From Symploca sp. SIO2E9 (GTDB taxonomy: Bacteria; Cyanobacteriota; Cyanobacteriia; Cyanobacteriales; Coleofasciculaceae): a stretch of 32,000 nucleotides of DNA. Of the stretch, positions 20,832 to 25,137 are shown one piece after another. Location: positions 15,553 to 47,552 of the forward strand of contig JAAHGS010000030.1 of NCBI GenBank assembly GCA_010692645.1. Direction: 5' to 3'. How positions within the stretch are numbered: position 1 is the stretch's first letter; every line of letters begins with the position of its first letter. The position numbers and the translations under genes were made by a program. The notes under the pieces are model-generated. The model was not told the origin of the DNA and ran no database searches. It saw only the letters and a list, made by a program, of their open reading frames with translations.

Positions 20832-21191
20832 TTAGTAACGAGGGATGCGATCATCAACAAGCAGCGAGTAGGCATCAATACCACCAGAAATATTTTTGAC
20901 GTTAGTGAAGCCCTGGCTAGCTAGCCACTGGCACATCTGAGCTGAGCGGACACCGTGATGGCACATAACTAGGGTTTCGTTGTCTCGATCAAAGCGAGTT
21001 GTGATTTGGTCAGACCATTGAGCAAATTCACTTAAGGGTAACACCTCAAAGCCCTCAAGATGGGCAATCTCTACCTCCTGAACCTCTCGTACGTCGATTA
21101 ATTGGAGAGTATCAGAAGAAAGAGCTATCCTTTGAGCCAATTCCTCAACAGAGATTTCGGGGATGGATTGATCGGGAGATTGATTTACCAT
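20832..21191 (-). CDS. Single-domain rhodanese-like sulfurtransferase
   Basis: The track start at 21194 is a TTG, and the ATG at 21191 gives MVNQSPDQ. The active-site loop is VMCHHGVRSAQMCQWL, followed by NISGGIDAYS. Confidence 0.85.
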   Translation of the reverse strand: MVNQSPDQSIPEISVEELAQRIALSSDTLQLIDVREVQEVEIAHLEGFEVLPLSEFAQWSDQITTRFDRDNETLVMCHHGVRSAQMCQWLASQGFTNVKNISGGIDAYSLLVDDRIPRY

Positions 21192-21384
21192 CAAAATTTT
21201 TCCAAAAATCTATAAGACTTATTAAAGTACTGCTCATGAAACGACGAACAAGGAATCCCTAATGTAATCTTAACGGTAGGGAAACCCACAACAAATCGAA
21301 GAAGATGGCATGGGAGGATGTCACTTAGTGGTTGGCAAGAATAGGTGAGTGCTCCACACACTGACTCTACGAGTACAGTGTGGG

Positions 21385-21640
21385 CTTCTTAAGACTTTTT
21401 AAGACAGCCTCAGTCAATAGCCTCAGTCTTCCGTCGTGCTAGGGAGACTACGTTGCCCAGAATGTATAGGCACTCAGGGGTGTAGGGCTGACAACCCGCG
21501 TTCTAGCCCCGGACTCTGCGGCTTTTGATTAAACATCCCTGCTGTGTGAGAGGGGAAGTGTTGAGAGCTAGAAACCTGGGACAACATTGGCGAAGAACAC
21601 CACCTTTACGGGTTCAACTTTATGTAGTTGAAAATCATGA
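21385..21640 (+). ncRNA. Candidate IscB omega RNA (HEARO-type structured RNA); the 5' boundary is approximate
   Basis: The region is ORF-free and lies directly upstream of, and co-oriented with, iscB. By eye, its GC content is higher than that of other intergenic DNA in this window. It contains direct repeats ttaagac x2 (21389, 21399) and agcctcagtc x2 (21406, 21419). The stem gggct/agccc spans 21485-21509. A 7-bp hairpin, ttcaact/agttgaa (21613-21632), ends 4 nt before the ATG. The call rests on position plus visible structure; it is not an alignment to a covariance model. Confidence 0.5.
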
Positions 21641-22965
21641 AAGTTTGTGTAGTTAACATTGGTGAGCGTCCGTTGATGCCCACCACACCGAGAAAAGCCA
21701 AAATCTTGCTCAGGGAGGGAGCAGCAAAGATATTTAGGCGCGACCCATTTACGATCCAATTGCTCAGTGATTGCCACGGCTACATTCAGCCAGCCACCTT
21801 GGGAATTGATGCAGGTTACTTGAACATTGGCTACAGTGCACTCAATCAAACAGCAGAGCTGATTGGCGGCGAAGTCAAAATGCTCGAAGGGATGTCACAA
21901 CGCATAAGCGAAAAGCTTAAGTACCGTCGCACTCGTCGTAATCGATTGCGTTATAGAGCGCCAAGATTCAATAACCGTCGGCGCAATAATGGTTGGTTAA
22001 CTCCGAGTATCGAGCACAAGTTAGATACCCACCATCGTCTCATCGACCGAATTAAGTCCGTGTTGCCGATTGAGACAGTAGTGATAGAAGTAGCCAACTT
22101 TGACATCCAAAAAATCAAGAATCCAGAAATCTCTGGAAATGGGTATCAACAAGGGGAACAAAATGGTTTCGACAATTTGAGGGAGTACCTGTTACATCGA
22201 GATGGGCATAAATGTCAGCATCCAGAGTGCAAAAATAAATCCAAACAACCCAATCTTCAAGTACATCATTTGGGCTTTTGGAAAAATCCTCCAGACCGCA
22301 CTGACCGCCCTGGTAATCTCATCACTCTCTGCAACAAATGTCATACCCCAGCGCAGCACAAAAAGAAAGGAAAATTGTTTGGATGGGAGCCAAAAATCAA
22401 GCCATTCAAGCCTGAGACTTTCATGTCTACAGTGCGGTGGAGGCTTGCCAAAGATACTGGTTACAAGGCAACTTTTGGGTACATCACGAAAGCGAAACGC
22501 CGCATTTTAAAGTTGGATAAATCACATCATAATGATGCTTTTGTCATTGCTGGAGGCGAGTATCAAACTAGGTGTGAGGCATTAAATCTGGTTCAGATAC
22601 GAGGCAACAAGCGTTCAATGGAACAATTCTATGATGCCAAGTATTTGGACATCAGAGATAAAGTGCCAAAATCAGGAACGGAATTGTTTTCTGGTCGTAG
22701 AACGCGCAATAACAATCTTAATAGCGAAAACCTACGAGTGTACCGAGGACACAAATTATCCAAAGGACAGCGTAGGGTTAAAAAGCTTCGCTATCGCTAT
22801 CAACCTCATGATGAGGTTGAATTTGAAGGAGCCGTTTTTGAGGTAGTAGGAATGCAAAACAAAGGCACCGGAGTTAAGTTGAAAGATTACCCAGGCATTA
22901 AGAATAAAGTGGTCAAAATTTCTGCTGTTAAGTCAGTTAAGAAGCGAGGAGGTATTTGTGCTTAA
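21637..22965 (+). CDS. iscB: IscB: IS200/IS605-associated OMEGA RNA-guided nuclease (RuvC split by HNH, PLMP domain, Arg-rich bridge helix)
   Basis: The track start at 21628 is a TTG, and the ATG at 21637 gives MKVCVVNIGERPLMPTTPRKAKILL, which contains the PLMP motif. The remaining motifs, in order, are RuvC-I TLGIDAGYLNIGYSA, RRXRR/bridge KLKYRRTRRNRLRYRAPRFNNRRRNNGW, RuvC-II ETVVIEVANFD, HNH CQHPEC...LQVHHL...GNLITLCNKCH, and RuvC-III KSHHNDAFVIAG. A basic C-terminal domain follows. Confidence 0.85.
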   Translation: MKVCVVNIGERPLMPTTPRKAKILLREGAAKIFRRDPFTIQLLSDCHGYIQPATLGIDAGYLNIGYSALNQTAELIGGEVKMLEGMSQRISEKLKYRRTRRNRLRYRAPRFNNRRRNNGWLTPSIEHKLDTHHRLIDRIKSVLPIETVVIEVANFDIQKIKNPEISGNGYQQGEQNGFDNLREYLLHRDGHKCQHPECKNKSKQPNLQVHHLGFWKNPPDRTDRPGNLITLCNKCHTPAQHKKKGKLFGWEPKIKPFKPETFMSTVRWRLAKDTGYKATFGYITKAKRRILKLDKSHHNDAFVIAGGEYQTRCEALNLVQIRGNKRSMEQFYDAKYLDIRDKVPKSGTELFSGRRTRNNNLNSENLRVYRGHKLSKGQRRVKKLRYRYQPHDEVEFEGAVFEVVGMQNKGTGVKLKDYPGIKNKVVKISAVKSVKKRGGICA

Positions 22966-23040
22966 AAGCACTCAGACGCTCCGATTCATGAGGGGCTGTC
23001 GCACCGAATTCATTCCCAGCGTTTAAACGCCCCATCCCAA

Positions 23041-23143
23041 GGGTGAACGAAATTTTGGTTGGAATTTCAATTCTCCGCGTCTGGAGCGTCTCCGCGTCTC
23101 CGCGTCTGCTTACTCGTTCCCCCACTCTTTTTTTCGCTCACCC
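23041..23143 (+). mobile_element. Family-A MITE copy 2 (103 bp) with a perfect 9-bp target-site duplication
   Basis: The sequence runs gggtgaacgaaattttgg...ccgcgtct repeats...ttttcgctcaccc. The flanks are identical: ccatcccaa at 23032-23040 and 23144-23152. Confidence 0.85.
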
Positions 23144-23262
23144 CCATCCCAAGCTGACCCCTCCGGGGTACAGGCGTGGGGCTTCTTGCCCGAGCAGCTA
23201 AAATAGGCTGAAAATAGGCATAATAACCTAATCTAACGCCTTCGGACGCTTTCAAAATCACC

Positions 23263-25032
23263 ATGAAGCTACGCTCGTTCTTTTCTGTCTTAGCAGTTGG
23301 TGCCATTGGGCTGCTGTTGACTGCTGTAGGAGGCTTTTTCTGGTTAACCTCCCAAAGCCCCCTGAATTTACTGCACGGAGGTGTAAAGACCAATCCAACT
23401 GCTGCAATTTTTGTGCCGAAACAGGCACCGATAATGGTGTCAATGCAAGTTAATCCAGAGCGTTTGGAAGCATTTAGGCAACTAGCAGCACGTCCAGTTT
23501 ATCGGCGACAAGCCCGTGCTGAACTAAAGCAATTTGAACAGAGTCTGCTGGCAATTATTGACGCTGATTTAGACTACCGTCGTGATATTCAACCCTGGTT
23601 GGGAGATGAAATCACTCTAGCTGTTACCTCTCTAGACTTTGACCGCAATCGAGAGAATGCCACACAGCCTGGATACTTACTGGCACTCACCGCTAAAGAC
23701 CCCAAACGGGCCCGAGAGTTCTTACAACTTTTTTACTCCAAGCAGGCGCTCTCTGAAACCTCGGATTTAGTCTTGGAAAAGTACAAAGGCGTTAACCTGT
23801 TTTACAAGCGTCCACTGGTCCAAATGGAGCCATCTGGTGATGATTTTAATCAAAGTCAGATGTTTACAACTCTTACTAGCGCAATCGTGGGGGACCGCTT
23901 TGTGCTATTTGCCAATCATCCCAAAGTTTTACGAAGTGCCATTAACACAGTCCAAGCTGCAAACCTAAGCTTGGAAAATGAGCCTGTCTACCAGCAAACT
24001 CTGCAAAGTCTAAGTGAACCTAGGATTGGTTTAAGTTTTGTAAATCTCCCAGCTTTGACAGCCTGGATTGCTAATCAACCAGTACCTGTGCAGGATACCT
24101 TGCAGGGTTCTGAGACTCTAGCATTTGCCCTGTCACTGGATCTTCAAGGTTTAGTAGCACAAACAGCTTTGGTAGGGGCAGAACCTGGTACTCAAAGCCA
24201 ACAGCCCACTCTCTGTGAACCAGTAGCCGCCTTACAGTATATTCCAGCCAAGAGTGCCTTTGCGATCGCAGGTACTGACTTAAATCAACTCTGGAACCGT
24301 CTTCAGACAGGTGTTGCCAGCGATGAAACCCTCAAACCGTTGCTGGAGAAATCCCTCGCCAGTTTACGCTCACGCTGGGGCATTCAACTGCCAGAGGATG
24401 TATTTAGTTGGGTACAAGCAGAATATGCACTCTCAATGCTGCCTCGCCCAGATAGAGAAAATCCCGATTGGATTTTTGTCGCAGGAAAATTGGATAACTC
24501 AACAGCCCAGGTATCAATTGAGCATCTAGACACTGTTGCCAAGCAACAGGGAATGAGTGTAGGTTTTCTGTCACTGGGAGAACACAAACTCACAGCCTGG
24601 ACAAAGCTGACTACATCTGCTCAAGTTGCTGCTAGTCGCCAAGCAGAAGCAGAGTTGACTCAACCCTTACTAAAGTTAGAAGCACAAGTTCAGGGAGTCC
24701 ATACCACTGTAGGAGATTACGAAATTTTCGCAAGTTCGATTGCTGCAATGGATCAGGCGCTTAAGGGAAGGTTGAATTCTCTGCTCAAAAGTGAGCAATT
24801 TCAAAGTGCGATTGCCTCTTTACCGGAACAAAATGATGGCTATTTTTATCTTGACTGGAAGCGGAGTGAAGCTTTGCTCAAGCGTCAGCTGCCAATTGTG
24901 AGAGTAGCTCAGCTAGTAGGAAAACCTCTATTTGATCATCTGCAATCTCTTAGTCTTAGCAGCTACGGTATCGATAAAGGCATCCGACGAAGCAAGCTGT
25001 TTCTCCGGCTAGATACTACTGAGCAAGTGTGA
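23263..25032 (+). CDS. Conserved cyanobacterial membrane-anchored protein, DUF3352-like
   Basis: A 589-aa ORF with an ATG start. It has an N-terminal signal-anchor (FFSVLAVGAIGLLLTAVGGFFWL) followed by a long soluble region (DIQPWLGDEITLAVTS...). The family name is assigned from memory of similar cyanobacterial proteins and has not been verified. Confidence 0.7.
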   Translation: MKLRSFFSVLAVGAIGLLLTAVGGFFWLTSQSPLNLLHGGVKTNPTAAIFVPKQAPIMVSMQVNPERLEAFRQLAARPVYRRQARAELKQFEQSLLAIIDADLDYRRDIQPWLGDEITLAVTSLDFDRNRENATQPGYLLALTAKDPKRAREFLQLFYSKQALSETSDLVLEKYKGVNLFYKRPLVQMEPSGDDFNQSQMFTTLTSAIVGDRFVLFANHPKVLRSAINTVQAANLSLENEPVYQQTLQSLSEPRIGLSFVNLPALTAWIANQPVPVQDTLQGSETLAFALSLDLQGLVAQTALVGAEPGTQSQQPTLCEPVAALQYIPAKSAFAIAGTDLNQLWNRLQTGVASDETLKPLLEKSLASLRSRWGIQLPEDVFSWVQAEYALSMLPRPDRENPDWIFVAGKLDNSTAQVSIEHLDTVAKQQGMSVGFLSLGEHKLTAWTKLTTSAQVAASRQAEAELTQPLLKLEAQVQGVHTTVGDYEIFASSIAAMDQALKGRLNSLLKSEQFQSAIASLPEQNDGYFYLDWKRSEALLKRQLPIVRVAQLVGKPLFDHLQSLSLSSYGIDKGIRRSKLFLRLDTTEQV

Positions 25033-25035
25033 AAG

Positions 25036-25137
25036 GGGTGAGCGAAAAAAAGAGTGGGGAAATAAGTAAGCAGACGCGGAGACGCGGAGACGCGGAGACG
25101 CGGAGAATTCAAGTCCCACGCAAAATTTCGTTCACCC
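25036..25137 (-). mobile_element. Family-A MITE copy 3 (102 bp, inverted orientation) with a perfect 9-bp target-site duplication that contains the upstream gene's stop codon
   Basis: The sequence runs gggtgagcgaaaaaaagag...gacgcgga x4...aaatttcgttcaccc. The flanks are identical: gtgtgaaag at 25027-25035 and 25138-25146. The TGA at 25030-25032 is the stop of the 589-aa ORF. Confidence 0.85.

Follow-up and report, generated by a model that had tools for sequence, protein, structure and literature searches.

The closest described relatives of the locus analyzed here are the non-autonomous IscB elements of the OMEGA systems, which were reportedly described by Altae-Tran et al. in 2021, and the HEARO RNA (Rfam RF02033), which is said to go back to Weinberg et al. 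in 2010. In the IS200/IS605 family, for example in IS608 and ISDra2, the insertion point lies 3′ of a short motif, which thus adjoins the left end (LE), and imperfect hairpins are normal. For IscB, a TAM on the 3′ side of the target is the expected geometry. About 1.5% of iscB genes lie near a tnpA gene, and the transposon right end (RE) forms the outer limit of the HEARO region that precedes iscB, as in the ISGst IscB element of G. stearothermophilus (Meers et al., 2023, doi 10.1101/2023.03.14.532601).

The window is the whole stretch of 32,000 nucleotides that was analyzed from Symploca sp. SIO2E9 (genome G000). The segment at 21345-23197 (1,853 bp, + strand, as are the other oriented element features given below) is very probably a non-autonomous IS200/IS605-family insertion sequence that carries an omega RNA (HEARO) gene and iscB as cargo and is inserted beside CTAA (TTAG on the opposite strand) in the spacer between a rhodanese gene (20832-21194, − strand) and a DUF3352 gene (23263-25032, + strand). 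It is of the textbook non-autonomous IscB/omega RNA kind, apparently intact and without a transposase of its own, and all of its features agree with the published IscB homing model. Its anatomy, boundaries, TAM and conservation were observed directly, as was the existence of a matching tnpA elsewhere in the genome. As in the OMEGA and ISGst IscB elements, the omega RNA precedes iscB and has the RE as its outer limit, tnpA is absent from the element, the candidate guide is supplied by flanking DNA outside the RE, the TAM adjoins the LE and coincides with the target motif of the transposase, and tnpA-bearing, tnpB-bearing and cargo-less (PATE) relatives with similar ends are present in the same genome. 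In contrast to those elements, this one resides in a filamentous cyanobacterium (Symploca), its IscB shows only distant similarity to the IscBs of solved structure, and a nested MITE and a 46-bp module lie between iscB and the LE of the window copy. The TAM also differs, being TTAG here and TTCAT for GstIscB (Meers et al., 2023).

The extent of the element was established with the genome of Symploca sp. SIO3C6 (G001), which belongs to the same genus. The earlier note had suspected that the rhodanese and DUF3352 genes are adjacent in relatives and that an empty site between them would reveal its ends, TAM and guide; the genes are indeed adjacent in this sister genome and in many family members, and such a site was found in it and does reveal all three, the relatives used being Symploca rather than the Nostocales that the note had named. 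SIO3C6 has two empty sites, and both junctions of the element are fixed by them. The first (G001:C235) is the rhodanese-DUF3352 spacer itself, the counterpart of the window copy, with the two genes about 43 bp apart and with neither an IscB element nor a MITE between them. After removal of 21345-23197, the window became collinear with this site, and the right flank aligned from CTAAAATAGG onward; the left flank of the empty site has diverged and differs by an indel of about 50 bp, so that the junction is confirmed with an imperfect guide match. At the second site (G001:C13), ATAATCAG is followed directly by CTGG, whereas in its counterpart, the paralogous copy on G000:C378, ATAATCAG is followed by the element and then by CTGA. 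No target duplication was seen at either empty site. These precise presence/absence polymorphisms are as expected for the IS200/IS605 family.

Further empty sites were sought at two more G001 copies (C257 and C229), and no clean one was obtained. The flanks of the iscB copy on G001:C257 map 68 kb apart on G000:C135 (4101 and 71998), with the break exactly at the RE junction, which could reflect an element-associated rearrangement or deletion, or an assembly difference. The copy on G001:C229 (1875-2761) is truncated at the 5′ side of iscB (from the window-equivalent position 22199) and joined to a GGGGAGAT-type tandem repeat via a shared GAGATGGG; at the orthologous site, G000:C290:38860-39067, the repeat is expanded and the element is absent.

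At the left boundary, homology starts exactly at 21345 in four close copies, in two fragments, in some 10 additional ends of the genome and in at least 15 relatives from other genera. The upstream alignment of iscB relatives showed that the sequences before the base equivalent to 21345 are unrelated among copies, and on the left of the G001:C257 copy the flanking sequence agrees with G000:C135 as far as the junction base. Strict regular-expression patterns for the ends recovered only 5 of 22 distant-relative loci, and alignment was used in their place. The left end (21345-21392) starts with GTGAG, where the family consensus is GTGAC, and corresponds to the canonical RE read on the bottom strand, terminating in TCAC.

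At the other side, BLAST homology to the G000:C378 paralogue appears to end at 22987-22989, which speaks for the extent that the earlier note had provisionally given: 21350-23040, with an end at about 22990-23040, a palindrome near 23020 as a candidate end structure and a separate MITE in host intergenic DNA. However, in both G000:C378 and G001:C257 the iscB region is followed straight by a 54-nt end whose counterpart in the window lies at 23144-23197, both empty sites join at the base after this 54-nt end, and the palindrome module is missing from half of the copies. So early an end is thereby refuted. The genome has about 27 copies of the 54-nt end, and since this end directly adjoins iscB in copies lacking both MITE and module, the true right boundary of the window copy is 23197, and copies and empty sites together replace the earlier interval with 21345-23197. 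The boundary region at 23144-23197 is the canonical LE read on the bottom strand, with a hairpin at about 23148-23180 and 16-17 nt between it and the boundary. Without its two internal additions, the 46-bp module and the MITE, the element measures 1,704 bp.

The 46-bp module (about 22989-23034) lies between iscB and the far end and is a variant carried by some family members. The palindrome that the earlier note had pointed out, gcgtttaaacgc at 23019-23030, is present within it and forms a weak 4-bp stem; it is no subterminal structure of the element. The module is absent from the iscB copies on G000:C378 and G001:C257, from the tnpA element and from the PATE-like copies, and it is present in G001:C229 and six other loci, always beside the same end. 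On contigs C268, C371, C329, C36, C44 and C11 of G000, the TTTAAA-centred module was located at the same position of the LE region (between ATTCA and TCCCAC), and its carriers include members with and without iscB. It was never found away from an LE. The module could have arisen by recombination between ends, or as a tiny insertion with strict site preference.

The MITE (103 bp, 23041-23143, unoriented) is real, with 309 matches in the genome, 209 of them near full-length, but it does not abut the element as had been thought: it is nested inside. Its 11-bp terminal inverted repeats, GGGTGAACGAA and TTCGCTCACCC, are readable in the sequence, and the 9-bp target duplication CCATCCCAA is found at 23032-23040 and 23144-23152. 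The position 66 bp after the iscB stop, formerly taken as the start of the MITE, is that of the first duplication copy. Since the G001:C229 copy carries the module, no MITE and a single copy of the 9-mer, the MITE was inserted into the IscB element; the sequence is likewise uninterrupted, with one 9-mer copy, in six other ends. Being nested in the element, the MITE says nothing about the spacer as a repeated landing site, the role that had been proposed for this intergenic region, and the sister spacer holds neither insertion. The same MITE family occurs twice more in the window, at 25036-25137 (− strand), immediately past the DUF3352 stop, and at 2755-2872.

Both ends showed the features of the IS200/IS605 family. 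Imperfect subterminal hairpins (21354-21384 and about 23148-23180) lie on the same strand at both ends and resemble each other in sequence type as direct repeats, terminal inverted repeats are lacking, and insertion has taken place beside a specific motif of 4-5 nt, which adjoins only one end, and without duplicating the target site. As the motif abuts the LE in this family, the right end in the window is the canonical LE on the bottom strand, preceded there by TTAG. A tnpB gene that reads from LE to RE, into the RE, represents the canonical TnpB arrangement. Within the same end family, tnpB reads from LE to RE (G000:C3:7440-8802 and C57) and iscB reads from RE to LE; therefore, both set their RNA scaffold at the RE and would draw the guide from beyond it. 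The + strand was also considered as the canonical top strand and was rejected: the motif is present in both empty sites, the flank on the opposite side is unconserved, tnpB reads the other way, and the omega RNA of iscB has been placed at the RE (Meers et al., 2023).

The CTAA at 23198-23201 (TTAG on the canonical top strand) is host DNA outside the element. Right ends are followed by CTAA in about 25 of 27 copies and by CTGA in the remaining two, and the flanks diverge past the motif. Because the empty sites also carry the motif, as CTAA at G001:C235 and as CTGG at G001:C13, CTAA is the host target sequence, and hence the TAM. The flanks before the left end show no conservation among copies. 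In IS608, the last four bases of the RE are TCAA, and CTAA was considered in the same way as the last four bases of the present element; this was rejected, as both empty sites have the motif and the flank on the other side is unconserved.

Immediately 5′ of the conserved scaffold start lies the candidate omega RNA guide, TGGTTGGCAAGAATAG (21329-21344, about 16 nt), its length being taken from published IscB work. Judged from its position, this stretch would be transcribed as the guide and, after excision, would become the target adjoining the TAM. On the omega RNA strand the order is target (21329-21344) followed by CTAA, in keeping with a 3′ TAM. The 16-nt candidate guide is unique in the genome, with a single match at 0-1 mismatch.

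The hairpin at 21354-21384, which had been noticed earlier as a bulged candidate for a subterminal structure, folds as described (−9 kcal/mol; z −2.2 to −2.6) and lies 9 nt inside the boundary. It is conserved in dozens of related ends with compensatory changes, its stem pairs covarying, and it is both the subterminal hairpin of the RE and the first stem of the omega RNA. The scaffold of this RNA extends from 21345 to about 21636, directly upstream of iscB on the same strand. In the Rfam search at the gathering threshold nothing was returned in the window; under an E-value threshold, HEARO (RF02033) matched 21360-21603 over model positions 1-211, with 77.5 bits and an E-value of 2.4e-15 (gathering score, 83). 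Thus, as in described HEARO RNAs, the match covers the full model and stands immediately upstream of an HNH/RRXRR reading frame on the same strand, whereas its score falls 5.5 bits under the threshold and the clade of the window adds 12-15 nt and a different 5′ hairpin, that of the RE, before model position 1. Moreover, in the RNAalifold consensus of 17 copies, aligned over about 300 nt upstream of iscB from Symploca, Scytonema, Calothrix, Nostoc, Aetokthonos, Stigonema and others, 32 of 58 pairs showed compensatory changes. A promoter and terminator scan returned no more sites than in shuffled sequence, and this simple scan gave no sigma-70-like promoter upstream of the omega RNA. Because the upstream gene is divergent, read-through transcription would not supply the guide. 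Isolated fragments of the RE and the 5′ part of the omega RNA, with no iscB attached, were found at G000:C339:18813-18927 and C112:5598-5653 and are probably decayed copies.

The iscB gene (21637-22965) encodes 442 aa from an ATG at 21637, which is the most likely start; a TTG at 21628, three codons upstream, is an alternative start. The protein matched the Pfam families RRXRR (7.4e-54, residues 6-176) and HNH (1.6e-5), and its best matches among solved structures were IscB proteins, OgeuIscB among them (E about 1e-29 to 1e-36). An N-terminal PLMP motif (residue 12) precedes a split RuvC domain (RRXRR) with an inserted HNH, and the motifs GIDAG (56), VIEVAN (149), HH (210-211, the His pair of HNH) and HHNDA (297-301, RuvC-III) were recognized. 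In the alignment to OgeuIscB, the RuvC-I motif GIDAG pairs with GIDPG, and VVIEV, with the RuvC-II Glu, pairs with VVLEL. Putative catalytic residues are thus present throughout (RuvC-I Asp, RuvC-II Glu, HNH His and RuvC-III His/Asp), their role being assigned from published structures. The reading frame is open in all four full-length copies; dN/dS is 0.10-0.20 between pairs of them, and 0.11-0.20 for the window copy against the three other intact ones, indicating that the window iscB is under purifying selection like its mobile paralogues. A second iscB family, 31-36% identical, has at least four genes in G000 (C90:79412-80365, C146:4913-5863, C329:78739-79683 and C353:24198-24725).

In the window copy, the imperfect LE hairpin deviates from the family consensus by one stem mismatch (A where the consensus has a paired C) and alone folds no better than shuffles (z −0.6 to −0.9), and the mobility of this copy may be reduced. 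These defects, together with the MITE duplication that overlaps the foot of the LE hairpin and the lack of a promoter-like site in the scan upstream of the omega RNA, would also suit an immobilized relic, in which the MITE, the module and the far-end mismatch have disabled recognition by TnpA and iscB with its omega RNA persists as a fixed, possibly co-opted RNA-guided nuclease gene. However, the terminal 54 nt, with the whole hairpin and the 16-17-nt linker, remain undamaged beyond the MITE, as does the TAM; the reading frame is intact and evolves under the same constraint as the mobile paralogues; the site is empty in a genome of the same genus, so that the insertion is evolutionarily recent; and hairpins of IS200/IS605 elements are normally imperfect. 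We consider a relic improbable and retain the reading of an apparently intact, non-autonomous element.

The source of its transposase was sought within the genome. The earlier note had seen no tnpA next to iscB and had proposed a non-autonomous OMEGA element; in agreement with this, no Y1 transposase was found on the 54.7-kb contig of the window (C224), and all 16 Y1_Tnp matches in the genome lie elsewhere. Likewise, 28 related iscB loci of other cyanobacteria have no tnpA within 4 kb, which agrees with the published association of about 1.5% (Meers et al., 2023); an iscB without tnpA is the rule and not an oddity. The search for a trans-acting tnpA that had been recommended did yield one match: only one tnpA in the genome adjoins an end of the end family used by the IscB element. 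It belongs to a complete IS605-type element with tnpA and tnpB (G000:C57:12015-13973). The tnpB of this element, on the minus strand, has an open frame of 471 aa and reads into an RE-type end that starts with GTGAC and has a compensated hairpin; the divergent tnpA is intact (137 aa, with an HUH motif and a C-terminal Tyr) and is separated by 10 nt from a downstream LE, which shares 88% identity with that of the window and is followed by CTAA. Judged from these matching ends, the C57 TnpA is the best candidate for a helper transposase acting in trans. The C57 element resembles the Y1 element IS605 of Helicobacter pylori in its divergent tnpA and tnpB genes, its subterminal hairpins at both ends and a 4-nt motif beside the LE, whereas the window element carries iscB in place of both genes.

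The end family has several other members. A tnpB-only element at G000:C3:7440-8802 contains two overlapping reading frames of 241 and 167 aa, its tnpB being probably frameshifted, and the tnpB genes on C268 and C91 also adjoin the same LE. Cargo-less, PATE-like elements of about 390-430 bp with both family ends are found in G000 at C57:10528-10917, C101:129706-130124, C358:23630-24047, C362:43716-44134 and C44:12617-13046, and more than 10 solo LE copies occur elsewhere in the genome.

A search for further copies of the IscB element, also recommended earlier, revealed a second intact iscB copy in the window genome, on G000:C378 (85% amino-acid identity), and two intact copies and one truncated copy in Symploca sp. 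SIO3C6. The full-length copies examined (window, G000:C378 and G001:C257) occupy different, species-specific loci. The closest relative of the window copy is G001:C257; dS between the two is 0.28, similar to or below the dS of the host genes between the two genomes (0.54 for rhodanese and 0.34 for DUF3352). From this value, the differing loci and the empty counterpart of the window locus in G001, it follows that members of the family changed location at about the time when the two species separated, or since then. The empty site could also stem from precise excision in the sister lineage.

These observations can be arranged in a model. A Y1 TnpA acting in trans, for which the C57 element is the best candidate, would excise the IscB element as single-stranded DNA via the two subterminal hairpins; here the end at 21345 is the canonical RE, at which the omega RNA scaffold also has its 5′ end, and the end at 23197 is the LE abutting the target motif. 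Excision would rejoin the flanks, so that TGGTTGGCAAGAATAG is followed directly by CTAA. We infer from the gene arrangement that the omega RNA is transcribed, with its 5′ guide taken from the left flank, and that an active IscB loaded with it would recognize the donor joint (target and 3′ TAM) and cut it, after which recombinational repair from a sister copy would restore the element. Later, the window copy gained the 46-bp module and then the MITE, with its 9-bp duplication beside the LE hairpin. Both additions leave iscB, the omega RNA and the terminal 54 nt uninterrupted.

A broader and rather doubtful suggestion is that a single end family and a single TnpA serve Cas9-like (IscB) and Cas12-like (TnpB) homing nucleases as well as cargo-less PATEs in this Symploca genome via TTAG, with the 46-bp module being swapped between LEs by recombination. 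If this were true, the LE would be a modular, swappable cassette, and the genome would offer a natural test system for competition or cooperation between IscB and TnpB guides at shared donor joints. For the window locus itself, the IscB homing element is fully delimited, with its junctions, guide, TAM (TTAG) and candidate helper TnpA readable from sequence. With its intact paralogues and the empty sites of the sister species, the locus is usable for an excision and interference test, and it provides a compact IscB of cyanobacterial origin whose TAM is defined.
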